64,000 nucleotides of DNA from Escherichia coli (GTDB lineage Bacteria; Pseudomonadota; Gammaproteobacteria; Enterobacterales; Enterobacteriaceae): NCBI RefSeq assembly GCF_003334765.1, contig NZ_QOWT01000001.1. The stretch is one strand, 5' to 3'. Made by a program: the position numbers and the translations under genes. Below are positions 21,201 to 64,000 of the stretch, in pieces; the first letter of the stretch is position 1; every line of letters begins with the position of its first letter. Under the pieces are notes generated by a model, which saw only the letters and a program-made list of their open reading frames with translations, was not told where the DNA came from and made no database searches.

Positions 21201-22062
21201 GAACTCCAGCCCGGAAGAGATGGTGTCGGTATACCATTTCTGGACAATTGTGCTGGCGATTGCCGGAATGGTGCTTTACTTCATCTGCTTCAAATCGACG
21301 CGTGAGAATGTGGTACGTATCGTTGCGCAGCCGTCATTGAATATCAGTCTGCAAACCCTGAAACGGAATCGCCCGCTGTTTATGTTGTGCATCGGTGCGC
21401 TGTGTGTGCTGATTTCGACCTTTGCGGTCAGCGCCTCGTCGTTGTTCTACGTGCGCTATGTGTTAAATGATACCGGGCTGTTCACTGTGCTGGTACTGGT
21501 GCAAAACCTGGTTGGTACTGTGGCATCGGCACCGCTGGTGCCGGGGATGGTCGCGAGGATCGGTAAAAAGAATACCTTCCTGATTGGCGCTTTGCTGGGA
21601 ACCTGCGGTTATCTGCTGTTCTTCTGGGTTTCCGTCTGGTCACTGCCGGTGGCGTTGGTTGCGTTGGCCATCGCTTCAATTGGTCAGGGCGTTACCATGA
21701 CCGTGATGTGGGCGCTGGAAGCTGATACCGTAGAATACGGTGAATACCTGACCGGCGTGCGAATTGAAGGGCTCACCTATTCACTATTCTCATTTACCCG
21801 TAAATGCGGTCAGGCAATCGGAGGTTCAATTCCTGCCTTTATTTTGGGGTTAAGCGGATATATCGCCAATCAGGTGCAAACGCCGGAAGTTATTATGGGC
21901 ATCCGCACATCAATTGCCTTAGTACCTTGCGGATTTATGCTACTGGCATTCGTTATTATCTGGTTTTATCCGCTCACGGATAAAAAATTCAAAGAAATCG
22001 TGGTTGAAATTGATAATCGTAAAAAAGTGCAGCAGCAATTAATCAGCGATATCACTAATTAA
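21084..22062 (+). pseudogene. uidB: glucuronide permease (GPH family), 5'-truncated (about residue 130 to C-terminus)
   Basis: UidB-like sequence begins at ...[22 protein letters not shown]... with no native start; the first ~25 codons of the 351-aa ORF are out-of-frame uidA sequence. Confidence 0.8.
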
Positions 22063-22100
22063 TATTCAATAAAAATAATCAGAACATCAAAGGTGCAACT

Positions 22101-23366
22101 ATGAGAAAAATAGTGGCCATGGCCGTTATTTGCCTGACGGCTGCCTCTGGCCTTACCTCTGCTTATGCGGCGCAACTGGCTGACGATGAAGCGGGACTAC
22201 GCATCAGACTGAAAAACGAATTGCGCAGGGCGGATAAGCCCAGTGCTGGCGCGGGAAGAGATATTTACGCATGGGTACAGGGAGGATTGCTCGATTTCAA
22301 TAGTGGTTATTATTCCAATATTATTGGCGTTGAAGGCGGGGCGTATTATGTTTATAAATTAGGTGCTCGTGCTGATATGAGTACCCGGTGGTATCTTGAT
22401 GGTGATAAAAGTTTTGGCTTTGCCCTGGGGGCAGTAAAAATAAAACCCAGTGAAAATAGCCTGCTTAAATTAGGTCGCTTCGGGACGGATTATAGTTATG
22501 GTAGCTTACCTTATCGTATTCCGTTAATGGCTGGCAGTTCGCAACGTACATTACCGACAGTTTCTGAAGGAGCATTAGGTTATTGGGCTTTAACACCAAA
22601 TATTGATCTGTGGGGAATGTGGCGTTCACGAGTATTTTTATGGACTGATTCAACAACCGGTATTCGTGATGAAGGGGTGTATAACAGCCAGACGGGAAAA
22701 TACGATAAACATCGCGCACGTTCTTTTTTAGCCGCCAGTTGGCATGATGATACCAGTCGCTATTCTCTGGGGGCATCGGTACAGAAAGATGTTTCCAATC
22801 AGATACAAAGTATTCTCGAGAAAAGCATACCGCTCGACCCGAATTATACGTTGAAAGGGGAGTTGCTCGGCTTTTACGCGCAGCTCGAAGGTTTAAGTCG
22901 TAATACCAGCCAGCCCAATGAAACGGCGTTGGTTAGTGGACAATTGACCTGGAATGCGCCGTGGGGAAGTGTATTTGGCAGTGGTGGTTATTTGCGCCAT
23001 GCAATGAATGGTGCCGTGGTGGATACCGACATTGGCTATCCCTTTTCATTAAGTCTTGATCGTAACCGTGAAGGAATGCAGTCCTGGCAATTGGGCGTCA
23101 ACTATCGTTTAACGCCGCAATTTACGCTGACATTTGCACCGATTGTGACTCGCGGCTATGAATCCAGTAAACGAGATGTGCGGATTGAAGGCACGGGTAT
23201 CTTAGGTGGTATGAACTATCGGGTCAGCGAAGGGCCGTTACAAGGGATGAATTTCTTTCTTGCTGCCGATAAAGGGCGGGAAAAGCGCGATGGCAGTACG
23301 CTGGGCGATCGCCTGAATTACTGGGATGTGAAAATGAGTATTCAGTATGACTTTATGCTGAAGTAA
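22101..23366 (+). CDS. uidC: outer membrane glucuronide porin
   Basis: 421-aa ORF with signal peptide MRKIVAMAVICLTAASGLTSAYAAQ, beta-barrel-like, C-terminal aromatic residue. Confidence 0.9.
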   Translation: MRKIVAMAVICLTAASGLTSAYAAQLADDEAGLRIRLKNELRRADKPSAGAGRDIYAWVQGGLLDFNSGYYSNIIGVEGGAYYVYKLGARADMSTRWYLDGDKSFGFALGAVKIKPSENSLLKLGRFGTDYSYGSLPYRIPLMAGSSQRTLPTVSEGALGYWALTPNIDLWGMWRSRVFLWTDSTTGIRDEGVYNSQTGKYDKHRARSFLAASWHDDTSRYSLGASVQKDVSNQIQSILEKSIPLDPNYTLKGELLGFYAQLEGLSRNTSQPNETALVSGQLTWNAPWGSVFGSGGYLRHAMNGAVVDTDIGYPFSLSLDRNREGMQSWQLGVNYRLTPQFTLTFAPIVTRGYESSKRDVRIEGTGILGGMNYRVSEGPLQGMNFFLAADKGREKRDGSTLGDRLNYWDVKMSIQYDFMLK

Positions 23367-23374
23367 AAAATAAC

Positions 23375-23398
23375 GCCGGAGAGAAAAATCTCCGGCGT
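23375..23398 (+). terminator. hairpin downstream of uidC
   Basis: cgccggaga/tctccggcg stem followed by ttt. Confidence 0.45.
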
Positions 23399-23430
23399 TT
23401 CAGATTGTTGACAAAGTGCGCGTTTTTTAT

Positions 23431-23527
23431 GCCGGATGCGGCGTAAACGCCTTATCCAGCCTACAAAAACTCATAAATTCAAAGTGTTGCAGGAAAAGGT
23501 AGGCCTGATAAGCGTAGCGCATCAGGC
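23431..23527. repeat. REP pair (BIME-like) between uidC and ydgA
   Basis: gccggatgcggcgtaaacgccttatccagcctac and inverted copy gtaggcctgataagcgtagcgcatcaggc. Confidence 0.6.
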
Positions 23528-23553
23528 AATCTCTGGTTTGTTTTCAGATGAAA

Positions 23554-23582
23554 ACGCCGGAGTGAAAATTCTCCGGCGTTTT
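23554..23582 (-). terminator. hairpin downstream of ydgA
   Basis: acgccggag/ctccggcgt stem; on the minus strand followed by tttt. Confidence 0.45.
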
Positions 23583-23591
23583 GGCCGTGAA

Positions 23592-25100
23592 TTACTGCTG
23601 CGGAATTGCCGGTACAGCCGGAACGTTAAGAGCTGGCATCGCAAACATGCCAACAAAATCTTCTAACGACATTTTCTGCCCATTTAACGTTATCTGACCG
23701 TTAGCATATTGCAGGCTGGTGGTGATGGTATTGTCCTGCAAGGTGGTCAGACGGAACATCTGCCCCATTGCTGATGCACCTTCAACTTGCTGTTTCGCCA
23801 GTTTTTTCGCTTGATCTTCCTGATAACCTTCCAGCTTCGCTACCTGAGTCATAAACTCAGTTGCCATATCCACCGGAATGGTCAGTTTCGCATCCAGAGA
23901 TTTAACCGAACGATCTACTTCCTGCGCCAGCGTTTGCGGCGCTTCTTTAGTCGTTGCCGGATCTTTCAGGAACAGCGACAGATTCAGGGCACTTTCACCC
24001 TGACTGTTTTTCCAGCTTAGCGGCGCGATAGTAATCACCGGATCGCCTTTCAGCATCAGCGGCAGGGCGCTAAAGAAGGCTTCCGTCACTTTCTCCTGAT
24101 AAAGTTCGGGGTTGTTGGCAATTTCTGGCTGTGCCAGCAGCGCCTGAGTTTGCGCGTTATATTGCTGGCTAAACTGATGCCAGGCTTCACCATCAATCTG
24201 GCCGACTTTTAAAGTCAGCTTGCCGCTGCCCAGATCCTGATTCTGTACCTTCAGGCTGTTTAGCGAGTAATCCAGTTGGCTATTGATCGTTTTACCGTCA
24301 TTGACCAGATCCGATTTACAGCTGATCTCCATGCCTTCCAGCAGTGCCAGTTCTTTGCCTTCCACTGAAATGGTCATTTTTTCCAGTGACAGTTTTTGAT
24401 TTCCTACACGCTCACCAAAACTTGCCAGCGTGCTGGAACCGTCGGTTTTCAGATTATTAAAGGTCAACTGCACTTTCTGGTTGTATTCGTTAACTGCGTC
24501 TATCCGACCACTTTGCGCCTCCCCGGAAAGGGAGATGGCTTTGCCGTCTCTGTCAGCATTTAACTGGAACTCGCCGCCGCTAAAGGCGACTTTTTCATCC
24601 TTTTGCTCGTAATTCAGTGGCTTGAGCGAAATATCGGAACTGGAATCACCGCTGTAACCAATGCGCGAGTTAATCTCAAAAGGCGTTTCACCTTTTGCCA
24701 TATCAAACAGTGGTTTGCTTACTTCGTTATTAACCAGCGTGGTTTGAATTGATGCCATCGACGGGATCAGGTTCAGTTTTTTAAGCTGGGCAAGCGGGAA
24801 GGGACCATGATCAACCGATTCGTTGAAGATGACGCTCTGACCGCTTTTAATCCACGGATTTTCTTTCCCGGCAATGGGTTTCACCAACAGTTGCAACTGG
24901 CTGCTGAATACGCCGCGATGATAGTTTTGATAACTCACTTCCAGGTTGGATTCAGGAGCTGTCAGTTTGAGTTGCGCGTTCGCCTGCGCGACCATGTCTT
25001 CGAGATGGGTTTCAATCTTCTTGCCTGTATACCATGCGCCGCCTGTCCAGACTACGCCTAGCGCAACAATGACGCCTACCGCTACCAGCGATTTATTCAT
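23592..25100 (-). CDS. ydgA: DUF945-family periplasmic/membrane-anchored protein
   Basis: 502-aa ORF MNKSLVAVGVIVALGVVWTGGAWYTGKKIE... Confidence 0.9.
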   Translation of the reverse strand: MNKSLVAVGVIVALGVVWTGGAWYTGKKIETHLEDMVAQANAQLKLTAPESNLEVSYQNYHRGVFSSQLQLLVKPIAGKENPWIKSGQSVIFNESVDHGPFPLAQLKKLNLIPSMASIQTTLVNNEVSKPLFDMAKGETPFEINSRIGYSGDSSSDISLKPLNYEQKDEKVAFSGGEFQLNADRDGKAISLSGEAQSGRIDAVNEYNQKVQLTFNNLKTDGSSTLASFGERVGNQKLSLEKMTISVEGKELALLEGMEISCKSDLVNDGKTINSQLDYSLNSLKVQNQDLGSGKLTLKVGQIDGEAWHQFSQQYNAQTQALLAQPEIANNPELYQEKVTEAFFSALPLMLKGDPVITIAPLSWKNSQGESALNLSLFLKDPATTKEAPQTLAQEVDRSVKSLDAKLTIPVDMATEFMTQVAKLEGYQEDQAKKLAKQQVEGASAMGQMFRLTTLQDNTITTSLQYANGQITLNGQKMSLEDFVGMFAMPALNVPAVPAIPQQ

Positions 25101-58802: not shown

Positions 58803-59144
58803 TTAGGGGGTAATAACGCGGCCAGTTCGACGGTCCAGGCAGCGCAAAGTATTGGGCTCCCAGTAGGCATTGATGTTGGCGCTTTGCTCACATTTATCGC
58901 GGTTATCAAAAGCGGCGTCGGCTTTATCCCACTCTTTTTCAGTGCGTTTATTCACTTTCTGGCGCAGATTGCGCGTGTCATTCCATTGCTCTTTTTCCAT
59001 AGCGGCGTGCTGGCGGCTTTGTGCACTGTCGCCAGACTCAATCACCAGTTTGTTAGTTTCGGCATGAACAGTTGTGCTCAATGCCAGTGCGCAAGGCAGC
59101 AGAATAGCGAGCAGGCCGATTCGTTTGCTGAGAGTGATTTTCAT
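58803..59144 (-). CDS. ynfB: UPF0482 secreted protein
   Basis: 113-aa ORF with signal peptide. Confidence 0.88.
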
Positions 59145-59278
59145 AATTCATTCCCTGTATGAATGATTAAAGGTGATTCTACACCATCCACTGCGGACGC
59201 AAAACGTACCAGGAGGGTGTTTATATTGATGATATTATGTCGCCCTATAACTATACATGATGTCAATAAGAGACAAAG

Positions 59279-59605
59279 ATGATTAAAACAACGTTACTAT
59301 TTTTTGCTACTGCGCTGTGTGAAATTATTGGATGCTTTCTGCCCTGGTTGTGGTTAAAACGAAACGCCAGTATCTGGCTGTTGCTTCCGGCGGGGATTTC
59401 ACTGGCGCTGTTTGTCTGGTTGTTAACGTTGCATCCAGCGGCGAGTGGGCGTGTTTACGCGGCTTATGGTGGCGTTTATGTCTGCACGGCGTTGATGTGG
59501 CTGCGCGTTGTGGATGGCGTGAAACTGACTCTTTATGACTGGACGGGTGCGTTGATTGCGCTTTGCGGCATGTTGATCATTGTTGCGGGCTGGGGGCGCA
59601 CGTAG
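59279..59605 (+). CDS. ynfA: UPF0060 inner membrane protein
   Basis: 108-aa ORF with four TM helices. Confidence 0.88.
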
Positions 59606-59810
59606 GAACATAAATCCATTTTATCAATAAGATAAGAGGAAGTGTCAGCTGACAAAAGGTATTCTATTTCATCTTTTGTCAACCATTCACAGCGCAAATA
59701 TACGCCTTTTTTTGTGATCACTCCGGCTTTTTTCGATCTTTATACTTGTATGGTAGTAGCTCAGTTGCGTAGATTTCATGCATCACGACAAGCGATGCAA
59801 GGAATCGAAC

Positions 59811-61025
59811 ATGAAGATCGTAAAGGCTGAAGTTTTTGTTACCTGTCCGGGGCGTAATTTCGTCACATTAAAAATCACCACTGAGGACGGTATTACGGGC
59901 CTTGGGGATGCCACCCTCAATGGACGTGAGCTTTCCGTGGCCTCTTATTTGCAGGATCACCTTTGTCCGCAGCTTATTGGTCGCGATGCGCACCGTATCG
60001 AAGATATCTGGCAGTTTTTCTATAAAGGTGCTTACTGGCGTCGCGGTCCGGTTACGATGTCGGCCATTTCAGCGGTTGATATGGCGCTGTGGGATATTAA
60101 AGCCAAAGCTGCCAACATGCCGCTTTACCAGTTACTCGGCGGCGCGTCTCGTGAAGGGGTGATGGTTTATTGCCATACCACCGGTCACAGTATTGATGAA
60201 GCTCTGGATGATTATGCCCGTCATCAAGAGCTTGGATTCAAAGCCATCCGCGTGCAGTGCGGAATCCCTGGTATGAAAACCACCTACGGCATGTCGAAAG
60301 GTAAAGGTCTGGCTTATGAACCCGCAACCAAAGGACAGTGGCCGGAAGAGCAGCTGTGGTCGACGGAGAAATACCTCGATTTCATGCCGAAATTGTTTGA
60401 CGCGGTACGTAACAAGTTTGGTTTTAATGAACATTTGCTGCATGACATGCACCATCGCTTAACGCCTATTGAAGCGGCGCGCTTTGGTAAAAGCATTGAA
60501 GATTATCGCATGTTCTGGATGGAAGACCCGACGCCTGCGGAAAACCAGGAATGCTTCCGTCTCATTCGCCAACATACCGTCACACCCATCGCAGTGGGTG
60601 AAGTCTTCAACAGCATCTGGGACTGCAAACAACTGATTGAAGAGCAACTCATCGATTATATCCGCACCACGCTGACCCATGCAGGCGGAATTACCGGTAT
60701 GCGCCGGATTGCCGATTTTGCTTCGCTGTATCAGGTACGTACTGGCTCACACGGTCCTTCCGATTTGTCACCAGTCTGCATGGCTGCGGCGCTGCACTTT
60801 GATCTGTGGGTCCCCAATTTCGGTGTCCAGGAATACATGGGTTATTCCGAACAAATGCTCGAAGTCTTCCCGCACAACTGGACTTTCGATAACGGCTATA
60901 TGCATCCGGGAGACAAACCGGGTCTTGGTATCGAATTCGATGAAAAGCTGGCGGCGAAATATCCCTATGAACCTGCTTATCTACCATTCGCACGTCTGGA
61001 AGATGGCACGCTGTGGAACTGGTAA
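59811..61025 (+). CDS. rspA: enolase-superfamily starvation-sensing protein (mannonate dehydratase-like)
   Basis: start placed at [40 protein letters not shown] within the 415-aa ORF, giving 404 aa. Confidence 0.92.
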
Positions 61026-61036
61026 GGAGTAAGATA

Positions 61037-62056
61037 ATGAAAAGCATATTAATTGAAAAACCGAATCAACTGGCGATTGTCGAACGTGAAATACCCACCC
61101 CGTCAGCGGGTGAAGTACGAGTAAAAGTGAAACTTGCCGGAATTTGTGGTTCAGATAGCCATATTTATCGTGGGCATAATCCTTTTGCGAAATATCCGCG
61201 CGTCATTGGTCATGAATTCTTTGGCGTCATTGATGCAGTGGGTGAAGGCGTGGAAAGCGCCAGAGTCGGTGAACGTGTTGCTGTCGATCCGGTGGTCAGC
61301 TGTGGGCATTGCTATCCGTGCTCTATAGGTAAACCGAACGTTTGTACGACACTGGCTGTATTAGGTGTGCACGCTGACGGTGGTTTCAGTGAATATGCCG
61401 TGGTTCCGGCAAAAAATGCGTGGAAAATTCCTGAAGCAGTGGCCGATCAATATGCGGTAATGATCGAACCTTTTACCATTGCGGCTAACGTAACCGGACA
61501 TGGTCAACCGACTGAAAATGATACCGTTCTGGTTTATGGTGCCGGTCCAATCGGCCTGACGATCGTTCAGGTATTAAAAGGCGTCTATAACGTTAAAAAT
61601 GTGATTGTTGCCGATCGCATTGATGAACGACTGGAAAAAGCGAAAGAGAGCGGGGCTGACTGGGCGATTAATAACAGCCAGACACCGCTTGGCGAGATTT
61701 TCACTGAAAAAGGCATCAAGCCGACATTAATTATCGATGCGGCTTGTCATCCTTCTATCCTGAAAGAGGCCGTAACGCTGGCTTCTCCAGCGGCACGTAT
61801 TGTATTGATGGGGTTCTCCAGTGAACCGTCTGAAGTGATTCAGCAAGGAATTACCGGAAAAGAACTCTCTATTTTCTCTTCACGCTTAAATGCAAATAAA
61901 TTCCCGATCGTTATCGACTGGTTAAGTAAAGGGTTAATTAAACCAGAAAAATTAATTACCCATACGTTTGATTTCCAGCATGTTGCTGATGCCATTAGTT
62001 TATTTGAACAGGATCAAAAACATTGCTGCAAAGTCTTACTCACTTTTTCTGAATAA
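61037..62056 (+). CDS. rspB: zinc-dependent alcohol dehydrogenase-family starvation-sensing protein
   Basis: start placed at MKSILIEKPNQLAIVEREIPTP giving 339 aa; GHE..G...C.CG zinc ADH motifs. Confidence 0.92.
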   Translation: MKSILIEKPNQLAIVEREIPTPSAGEVRVKVKLAGICGSDSHIYRGHNPFAKYPRVIGHEFFGVIDAVGEGVESARVGERVAVDPVVSCGHCYPCSIGKPNVCTTLAVLGVHADGGFSEYAVVPAKNAWKIPEAVADQYAVMIEPFTIAANVTGHGQPTENDTVLVYGAGPIGLTIVQVLKGVYNVKNVIVADRIDERLEKAKESGADWAINNSQTPLGEIFTEKGIKPTLIIDAACHPSILKEAVTLASPAARIVLMGFSSEPSEVIQQGITGKELSIFSSRLNANKFPIVIDWLSKGLIKPEKLITHTFDFQHVADAISLFEQDQKHCCKVLLTFSE

Positions 62057-62113
62057 TACCAATAACGGCGAGTAAGTAGTACGCATCTTACCTCTTTTTT
62101 AGAGATAACCATT

Positions 62114-62224
62114 ATGACAATAGAAAAACACGAAAGAAGCACTAAGGATTTGGTGAAAGCAGCAGTATCGGGATGGCTGGGCACTGCGCTTGAATTTATG
62201 GATTTCAAGAGTCATGCGTGTTAA
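62114..62224 (+). pseudogene. ydfJ: 5' stub of MFS transporter gene interrupted by prophage (36 codons)
   Basis: ATG at 62114 encodes MTIEKHERSTKDLVKAAVSGWLGTALEFMDF then diverges and stops; recalled as the ydfJ N-terminus; integrase stop 20 bp downstream. Confidence 0.6.
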
Positions 62225-62243
62225 CTATTTGATAAATATTAAA

Positions 62244-63539
62244 TTAATTTTTCATTGCTTCGTTATGGGGCATGGTTGGGGCAAACTCGCTTAACTGTGT
62301 ATTTAACAAAGCTACCTGTGCATTATTGTTTTCAGACATCCATTTTCCGTATACCTGAAATACCATTTGCGCATCTGCATGGCCCATCTGGTTTGCTATA
62401 AATGCCGGGTTAGCACCAGCTGTCAGCGACCAGCAGGCATAAGTATGTCTCGACTGATATGATTTTCGATGGCGGAGTCCGGCACGTTTTATCGCTGCGT
62501 CCCACATCTGCCTTATTGAGTCAACGGTAAAATGGTCACCATAATTTTTTACTCTCGCTGACACTTCAGGTTGAAAAACAAAGGTGCATTTTTGTTTTTC
62601 TGTTCTGCCATACTCTCTGAGGTGAACATCAATGATATGCTCTTTGCTCAGTCTCGTTAATGTCATCTGACTCCGGAGAGCGTCGATTGCTGGCTTAATA
62701 AGATGAATGACCCGATTGGTTCCCGCCTGTGTTTTTGGTACCGTGAAACGGTCTTTTGCTAAATTTCTCCTGATCATCATTGTTCCATTTTTCAGATCTA
62801 TGTCCTCCCATCCAAGTGCACACAGCTCACCAGGGCGAACTCCAGTATAAACAGAAACACACCATAAATTTTTTGCTTGCTGATTTCTGCACGCATCGAT
62901 AAGACGGATAAATTCTTCCCGCGAAAGAGGATCCGGAATGGTTCTTGATTCCTTTAATGGCGAGATCCCCTTAAACGGATTATCTGCCAGGTAACCGTTA
63001 TCAACACCAAACTGGAACACGGCGTTAAGATTTGTCATGTAATTATTTACAGTTACAGCCGATCTCCCTGGTTGTGTAACAATATAGTTACTTTTGGGGA
63101 TCTGGTATCCAGTCAGTAACTCTTTACGAACCTCCAGTAATTTTTCTTTATTAATCGATGAGGCAAGATTTTTTTCACCGATTATGCTCAGGATATTTTT
63201 GATGACGGCACGGTATGTGTTGAGTGATGTTTTGGCGACTTCAGTTTCTTTCAGTGCCAGAAATTTTTCAGCCAGTTCTTTTATGGTTAAATCTTGTCGG
63301 GCCTCACCAAATTTTTCCAGATTGCGTGAGGAGGGAAACTGTTTTGCATAGTCGAAAACACCAGTTTTTATTGCGTAACAAACAGAGGAGCGTAGTTCAC
63401 CTGCAACGCGCCTGTTTTTTGCTGTGTCAGGAACCCCCAGATTTTCCCTGACTCTTACGTCTTTATAAACAAACCAGATACGTAATTTCCCTCCATGGTT
63501 TTCCACGCCTGTCGGATATTTCATTTCAACTTCTCTCAT
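62244..63539 (-). CDS. intQ: phage tyrosine integrase
   Basis: 431-aa ORF (true start may be the internal MKYPTGVENHGG); C-terminal catalytic region with R...HxxR...Y-type motifs (HRKSYQSRHTYA...HADAQMVFQVYGKW). Confidence 0.8.
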   Translation of the reverse strand: MREVEMKYPTGVENHGGKLRIWFVYKDVRVRENLGVPDTAKNRRVAGELRSSVCYAIKTGVFDYAKQFPSSRNLEKFGEARQDLTIKELAEKFLALKETEVAKTSLNTYRAVIKNILSIIGEKNLASSINKEKLLEVRKELLTGYQIPKSNYIVTQPGRSAVTVNNYMTNLNAVFQFGVDNGYLADNPFKGISPLKESRTIPDPLSREEFIRLIDACRNQQAKNLWCVSVYTGVRPGELCALGWEDIDLKNGTMMIRRNLAKDRFTVPKTQAGTNRVIHLIKPAIDALRSQMTLTRLSKEHIIDVHLREYGRTEKQKCTFVFQPEVSARVKNYGDHFTVDSIRQMWDAAIKRAGLRHRKSYQSRHTYACWSLTAGANPAFIANQMGHADAQMVFQVYGKWMSENNNAQVALLNTQLSEFAPTMPHNEAMKN

Positions 63540-63558
63540 TAGTTAGTGTGGCTTTTAG

Positions 63559-63810
63559 TCAAGTAAGATGACGTCTTGGTCTCGCTGATGCCTGGCGCTC
63601 AATCCAGCGATCAATTTCTTCCAGGTTGTAAAAGCATGGACTGTTATCCCATGGCATACCGTCATGAGCGACATGCTTATATTCCCTTCCTTCCATAAAC
63701 GATTTTTCCCGGGCCTTTTTTAACGTACCTTTTTTTATTCCTTTCAGCGCAATTAACTGCTCTTCGGATACCCATTTGCCGGGAGAGACAATCATGATTA
63801 CTTCGCTCAT
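63559..63810 (-). CDS. excisionase-like protein (DUF1233-type)
   Basis: 83-aa ORF ...VSPGKWVSEEQLIALKGIKKGTL... immediately upstream of int; family assignment from memory. Confidence 0.55.
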   Translation of the reverse strand: MSEVIMIVSPGKWVSEEQLIALKGIKKGTLKKAREKSFMEGREYKHVAHDGMPWDNSPCFYNLEEIDRWIERQASARPRRHLT

Positions 63811-63882
63811 CGATTTCTTTATCTCTTACATCAGACGAGCGCCGGTTGCAGAATACCAGTCACAACCGGCGACAGTTGAACA

Positions 63883-63999
63883 TTAAGAATCAGCCTGACT
63901 CGGGATCAGTTTTTGCCAGATAACTGAAACGTATTTTGCCTGGTAACGGGCGTCATCAAGTGCATTATGGCGCTCACCTTCGAATGGAATAGCCGTTCT
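63883..63999 (-). CDS. 3' end of a DEDDh-type (DnaQ-like) exonuclease gene, partial at window edge
   Basis: minus strand translates to RTAIPFEGERHNALDDARYQAKYVSVIWQKLIPSQADS then stop; HNALDDA resembles Exo III motif. Confidence 0.4.
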   Translation of the reverse strand, partial: RTAIPFEGERHNALDDARYQAKYVSVIWQKLIPSQADS

Positions 64000-64000
64000 G

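Follow-up and report, generated by a model that had tools for sequence, protein, structure and literature searches.

A Qin-family prophage junction within ydfJ of Escherichia coli, with open integrase and excisionase genes

We analyzed the end of a 64,000-nucleotide stretch of Escherichia coli DNA (contig NZ_QOWT01000001.1 of assembly GCF_003334765.1), which we refer to as the window. We read positions 61000–64000 and listed the open reading frames (ORFs). Both rspA and rspB are on the plus strand, and rspB ends at 62056. The gene immediately downstream of rspAB is ydfJ, and in the window this location has the following features:

62114..62224, plus strand: hybrid junction ORF, corresponding to ynfP (b4534) of K-12; ydfJ codons 1–31 (62114–62206), then five phage codons (KSHAC) and a stop codon
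62191..62206, no strand: attachment core of attL, TGAATTTATGGATTTC, from a three-way comparison of attL, attR, and attP
62207..64000, no strand: prophage DNA, the int-proximal arm; 98% identity to the attP right arm and int region of phage Tritos, and annotated in K-12 as prophage Qin
62244..63539, minus strand: tyrosine integrase; the longest ORF has 431 amino acids, and the RefSeq start is the ATG at 63524 (426 amino acids, WP_000876958.1)
63559..63810, minus strand: excisionase, 83 amino acids (PF06806, PHROG 539); "excisionase family protein" in RefSeq (WP_000005552.1)
63883..64000, minus strand: 3' end of a RecE-like exonuclease gene (exodeoxyribonuclease VIII; in K-12 its counterpart is ydfE, here in the full-length form), interrupted by the end of the window

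According to the ORF list, the 36-codon junction ORF encodes MTIEKHERSTKDLVKAAVSGWLGTALEFMDFKSHAC. The stop codon of int is 20 bp past the stop codon of this stub, on the opposite strand, just as a preliminary description of the sequence had it, and the att comparison indicates that 62207–62243 is already phage DNA. A gap of 19 bp separates the stop codon of xis from the longest int ORF. We transferred the coordinates of the exonuclease gene from the same locus in a near-identical genome, where the coding sequence (21984–24455) is annotated as "3'-5' exonuclease"; in the phages Tritos and PhiR42_1, the gene is annotated as exonuclease VIII. The window is cut within this gene, at 64000, and the element extends past it, so the window does end inside a prophage, as had been proposed. 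We found no structured RNA in 59000–64000 with Rfam, at E values up to 0.1, and promoter-like or terminator-like sites in 61900–64000 were at or below the shuffled expectation.

This arrangement is widespread. Using megablast, we compared 61900–64000 to 5,426 complete genomes of E. coli, and many of them match it at 100% identity. In the matching genomes, the annotation of this region lists rspB, site-specific integrase, excisionase family protein, and exonuclease. Because a 2.1 kb stretch is 100% identical in many complete genomes, this is not a chance pattern. In 2,295/5,426 genomes (~42%), the match within a single place spans 80% or more of the query. By this measure (at least 80% cover of the rspB-int-xis stretch), intact int and xis genes at ydfJ are ordinary, as they are found in about 40–42% of complete E. 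coli genomes.

In the annotation of K-12 MG1655, the same site contains rspB, ynfP (b4534, 36 amino acids), intQ (a pseudogene), IS2E, and ydfE (a pseudogene), inside the "cryptic prophage Qin". The preliminary description had suggested aligning the window to the rspB-intQ region of K-12. In a direct alignment, the two are identical over 62057–63403 (1347 bases) except for one base: position 62621 is in a codon that is CTC versus CTT, and both encode leucine, so the change is synonymous. K-12 Qin and the window share the insertion site, the core, and the flanking DNA. With its insertion in ydfJ at the shared core and its int end beside rspB, the element in the window belongs to the Qin/PPydfJ family.

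Past window position 63403, K-12 enters the end of an IS2 element (TGGATTTGCCCC...). In K-12 Qin, the IS2E-associated deletion took about 45 N-terminal codons of Int, the portion with the arm-binding domain (PF12167), as well as the int start and promoter; xis is missing entirely, and so is most of ydfE, the exonuclease gene. In contrast, the window retains intact int and xis genes, together with at least the 3' end of the exonuclease gene. The statement in the preliminary description that the Qin integrase of K-12 is defective was correct: intQ is annotated as a pseudogene and is cut by IS2E at the equivalent of ~63403, a lesion that is absent from the copy in the window. Excision of Qin from K-12 was undetectable, which was attributed to the inactive intQ (PMC3105296), and according to one review, intQ is mutated in most matches to Qin (PMC6379469).

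We compared three attachment sites: the junction in the window (attL), the far junction in near-identical genomes, among them CFSAN061772 (attR), and the attP site of Tritos. The attL junction (cores are given in upper case) is ...gcgctTGAATTTATGGATTTCaagagtcatgcg..., the attR junction at the far end is ...acacctgTGAATTATGGATTTCcagttatattcg..., and the attP junction of Tritos is ...acacctgTGAATTATGCATTTCaagagtcatacg.... The core is TGAATTTATGGATTTC in attL, TGAATT-ATGGATTTC in attR, and TGAATTATGCATTTC in Tritos attP. Thus, aligning the junction with the ydfJ fragment at the far end, as found in near-identical genomes, defined a core of TGAATT(T)ATGGATTTC, which is 15–16 bp and is common to the phage attP and the bacterial attB. 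An att core near 62200–62243 had been expected; there is a core at the junction, but it lies at 62191–62206 and ends at the break point. Tritos has a C in the core where the prophage cores have a G (ATGCATTTC versus ATGGATTTC), and the attP of Tritos matches both arms of the prophage at 98%. At this single-T difference, attL follows the bacterial arm and attR follows the phage arm, which places the crossover to the right of it, within ATGGATTTC (62198–62206). For the PPydfJ prophages, an att of 18–19 bp was defined by PCR of attP (PMC8112680, S7 Fig).

In the lambda nomenclature, the junction next to int is called attL; the previous label of "right end" fits only the map of K-12. For arm-type binding sites of Int, we searched Tritos attP for repeats and counted motifs and k-mers in a composite attP, and neither gave a convincing repeated family. 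As a side observation, (C/T)AACTAT(C/T)T occurs at about -67 and +23 from the core, and these are weak candidates for arm sites.

The ORF at 62114 had been described as the N-terminus of an MFS transporter that loses sense after ...EFMDF, at about 62206. Homology to ydfJ does stop exactly after ...EFMDF, at 62206. We built a 600-bp composite attB from the left arm in the window and the distal ydfJ arm of a near-identical genome. Many E. coli genomes that are annotated with an intact ydfJ beside rspB contain this composite in one unbroken piece, with 100% identity, and in 2,011 of the 5,426 complete genomes a single place spans 80% or more of it. The rejoined YdfJ has 455 amino acids and matches TIGR00883, the NCBIfam family of MHS metabolite/H+ symporters, with 462.9 bits, as compared to the curated cutoff of 443.45. 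The 36-amino-acid stub had no family match in NCBIfam by itself, as expected for such a short sequence. Because the composite attB is contiguous in genomes with an empty site and the 455-amino-acid ORF passes TIGR00883, the sequences identify the stub as the N-terminus of the MHS-family MFS transporter YdfJ, that is, codons 1–31 of ydfJ with five phage codons.

The remaining 424 codons of ydfJ are at the far end of the element, and their annotated start codon is the ATG inside the core. The prophage separates the promoter and N-terminus of ydfJ from the rest of the gene. A previous account also places Qin at the 5' end of ydfJ, with the loss of the promoter and 28 codons (PMC6379469). The identity to rspB-ynfP-intQ of K-12, together with the intact empty site in other genomes, bears out the proposal of a lambdoid prophage integrated within ydfJ.

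As judged by alignment to the integrases of sequenced phages, Int is full length. According to tblastn, it is 100% identical to Int of Escherichia phage PhiR42_1 (host ECOR13) over residues 1–431, and it is 99.1–99.5% identical to the integrases of Tritos, mEp460_ev081, and HannyBb over the same residues. So, the 431-codon frame without an internal stop, which had been noticed from the sequence, corresponds to a complete phage protein. In Pfam, Int has an arm-binding domain (PF12167, Arm-DNA-bind_2; residues 9–72, E = 8.7e-22, the full length of the model) and a catalytic domain (PF00589, Phage_integrase; residues 206–397, E = 8.7e-18, positions 4–165 of 172 in the model). It also matches PHROG 1, integrase (2.8e-75). 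In the NCBIfam search, Int had sub-threshold matches to Xer-type families only, and Xis had none. The second ATG of the int ORF, at 63524, is preceded by the purine-rich sequence AGAGAAG, and the first ATG is not preceded by such an element, so 63524 is the likely start of int.

We assigned the catalytic residues of Int using a HMMER alignment to the solved integrase of Tn1549. In the six-residue comparison that had been proposed, the catalytic residues include R235 (TGVRPGE), K269 (PKTQAG), R364 (YQSRHT), H387 (GHADAQ), and the nucleophile Y397 (FQVYGKW), so five of the six are canonical, but the position of the first His is Tyr361 (YQSRHT versus HAMRHT in Tn1549 Int). The integrase of VT1-Sakai, an Stx1 phage, is 61% identical and has the same KSYQSRHTYACWS box. 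Because VT1-Sakai Int shares Y361, the tyrosine at this position is probably a trait of this integrase lineage and not a lesion. A MAFFT alignment with lambda Int was dropped for the assignment of residues, as the H-x-x-R box was three residues out of register.

The gene directly upstream of int had been described as excisionase-like, and its matches in Pfam and PHROG agree with this. It matches PF06806 (DUF1233, putative excisionase; 1.9e-31, residues 5–73, positions 1–69 of 70 in the model) and PHROG 539, excisionase (1.4e-35).

The final 25 kb of the window is matched at 100% identity by several genomes, which give some indication of what lies beyond it. In two of these, FJ_Ec_21 and NCTC9100, int and xis are intact, and the exonuclease gene is truncated by IS elements. 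Their elements have K-12-like cargo (dicB/relBE/hokD/csp/lysis/pinQ/ydfK) and no head or tail genes, with the remainder of ydfJ at the far end. The gene order of dicB, relBE, hokD, cspB/F/I, pinQ, and ydfK downstream in K-12 Qin is found in the near-identical genomes as well. In FJ_Ec_21, both cores are intact and are 21.8 kb apart. In CFSAN061772, which is 99.97% identical over 22.1 kb, the element is about 23.5 kb and contains several pseudogenes. Because all three of the near-identical genomes that we inspected carry remnants of 22–24 kb, with pseudogenes and IS elements but intact int and xis, we think it most likely that the window's element is likewise a degraded remnant of the Qin type, of this size and with an intact recombination module. 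This assignment extrapolates from three genomes, and others that share the same 25 kb might carry a larger element; prophages in ydfJ have sizes of 11–97 kb, depending on the strain (PMC6379469).

Phages PhiR42_1, Tritos, HannyBb, and mEp460_ev081 have the same order of exonuclease, xis, int, and attP, with a RecE-like exonuclease upstream. These four are complete genomes of 45–49 kb, whereas the element in the genomes that match the window is a 22–24 kb remnant. The PPydfJ prophages of STEC and EPEC are lambda-like and are likewise integrated in ydfJ (Nakamura et al. 2021, PMC8112680). Type III effector loci and secondary attB sites within the prophage, both of which they carry (PMC8112680), are not visible in the window.

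The layout resembles that of lambda: the tyrosine recombinase, which is of the lambda-Int type, has an arm-binding domain at its N-terminus, the xis gene directly precedes int, attP is located just past the stop codon of int, and the core is short, with imperfect conservation. On the other hand, Int is only about 25% identical to lambda Int, and its arm domain (PF12167) and the excisionase (DUF1233) are from other families. The first catalytic His is replaced by Tyr here. Also, the target is the interior of a protein-coding gene, which is not repaired by the phage.

Together, these observations make us confident in identifying the region as attL of a lambdoid prophage of the Qin family, which integrated site-specifically into codons 26–31 of ydfJ. 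In the proposed mechanism, Int would bind the arm and core sites of attP and exchange strands within the ATGGATTTC of ydfJ. Integration left the promoter, the ribosome-binding site, and the first 31 codons of ydfJ on the rspB side, as the hybrid ORF ynfP. The far junction would have the core TGAATTATGGATTTC and then CAGTTATATTCGCTCGG, which is ydfJ from codon 32 onward. Int with Xis would carry out the reverse reaction, restoring ydfJ. Since sequenced phages carry an identical Int protein, we infer that Int and Xis may still be catalytically competent. Matching genomes also have both cores intact, so excision of the element, with restoration of ydfJ, could still take place.

We considered other explanations for parts of this picture. 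The 36-codon ORF could be an independent gene for a small protein, rather than a stub of a transporter: K-12 is annotated with "protein YnfP", which was detected as a tagged small protein (PMC6001520, Table 1). However, in genomes where this site is empty, the ORF that begins with this start codon and these 31 codons runs unbroken into the 455-amino-acid YdfJ, while the last 5 codons of ynfP and its stop codon are phage DNA that is common to attP. Expression of ynfP is what the retained promoter and ribosome-binding site of ydfJ would give, so we view an independent gene as extremely unlikely. Another question is whether a complete inducible lambdoid prophage of 45–49 kb, similar to PhiR42_1 or Tritos, or else a cluster of several prophages, lies past the end of the window. 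Viable-looking phage genomes do carry the same int-xis-exo module, the sizes of prophages at ydfJ vary as widely as noted above, and clusters of 2–4 prophages occur at ydfJ (PMC8112680). Yet the three inspected genomes, which match at 99.97–100%, all have remnants without head or tail genes; many more genomes match. A complete prophage or a cluster seems unlikely.

It is about equally improbable, in our view, that the integrase, despite its open reading frame, is non-functional or never expressed, so that the element is fixed like Qin of K-12 and the intact frame belongs to a young relic. In favor of a dead integrase, most tyrosine recombinases have the first catalytic His where this Int has Tyr361; the surrounding element is heavily degraded in the matching genomes; and a dead enzyme would fit with the review's finding that intQ is mutated in most Qin matches (PMC6379469). 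Against this, Int is 100% identical to that of PhiR42_1 and 99% identical to those of three other phage genomes, and its domain matches span nearly the full length of both Pfam models. The Y-x-x-R-H motif is also found in the VT1-Sakai integrase, and xis and both cores are intact. If the recombination module is functional, then int-xis and the attL and attR cores might have been kept in a decayed remnant because they act as a reversible switch for the host, as in regulatory prophages of the "active lysogeny" type. We consider such a switch to be very unlikely. If it does exist, then excision would rejoin the promoter and first 31 codons of ydfJ to the remainder of ydfJ-ydfI, next to rspAB on its downstream side, and would re-activate a cluster for the uptake and catabolism of sugar acids. 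Presumably, rspAB-ydfJ-ydfI is linked to the L-gulonate pathway; our search of the literature on rspAB-ydfJ-ydfI and L-gulonate returned nothing usable.

Earlier publications already cover the insertion site, the truncated ydfJ, the att sequence, and the intQ defect of K-12, and our preferred reading of the locus as the attL junction of a Qin-family prophage matters little beyond annotation. For annotation, it implies that the "gene" ynfP of K-12 is an artefact of a prophage junction in ydfJ, which is useful to know when reading catalogues of small proteins. Because this copy does not have the IS2 deletion that is seen in K-12, the element may still be excisable, unlike K-12 Qin (PMC3105296).

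The open reading frame at the integrase-proximal junction of the prophage and the truncated transporter gene at the far junction (attR) both arise from ydfJ. These features are located as follows (L003 and L006 are loci with attR, from genomes that match the window):

Window 62114-62224: hybrid junction ORF, 31 ydfJ codons plus 5 phage codons; ynfP (b4534) in K-12
L003 3395-3409 and L006 22246-22260: attR

The K-12 annotation names the hybrid ORF "protein YnfP", and YnfP is among the small proteins that were found by epitope tagging (PMC6001520, Table 1). Because the ORF is a junction hybrid, the protein that was detected as YnfP is the translated ydfJ stub, expressed from the promoter and ribosome-binding site of ydfJ that were kept there, and not the product of an independent gene.

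At attR, in both L003 and L006, the annotated start ATG of the truncated ydfJ (a 427-aa CDS in K-12) sits within the att core itself, and an in-frame TGA lies two codons upstream of this ATG. The phage arm 5' of the start has no obvious Shine-Dalgarno sequence in the matching genomes, which makes expression of the truncated YdfJ transporter doubtful.

Both prophage junctions and attB have the core ATGGATTTC, while the attP core of phage Tritos is ATGCATTTC. The one base that differs is within the presumed overlap region, and attP is otherwise 98% identical.

Beyond the junction, further features concern xis and the integrase:

Between 63810 and 63883: exonuclease-xis gap, 72 bp, from the exonuclease stop codon (63883) to the xis start (63810)
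63539, minus strand: first candidate integrase start; longest ORF (431 aa), used by the PhiR42_1 record
63524, minus strand: second candidate integrase start; 426 aa, chosen by RefSeq

The gap contains a perfect 9-bp inverted repeat at 63830-63861 (CGCCGGTTG ... CAACCGGCG, with a 14-nt loop), and no T-run follows this repeat on either strand. We ask if it may have a role in RNA processing or in attenuating xis-int read-through.

Both candidate integrase starts fall within 63524-63539. A purine-rich AGAGAAG precedes the start at 63524, and the Pfam arm-domain match begins downstream of both. Residue 361 is tyrosine (YQSRHT; 62457-62459, minus strand), at the position of the first catalytic histidine of tyrosine recombinases. 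Conservation of this tyrosine in the integrase of the Stx1 phage VT1-Sakai (61% identical) suggests that Tyr361 is a lineage-wide active-site variant.
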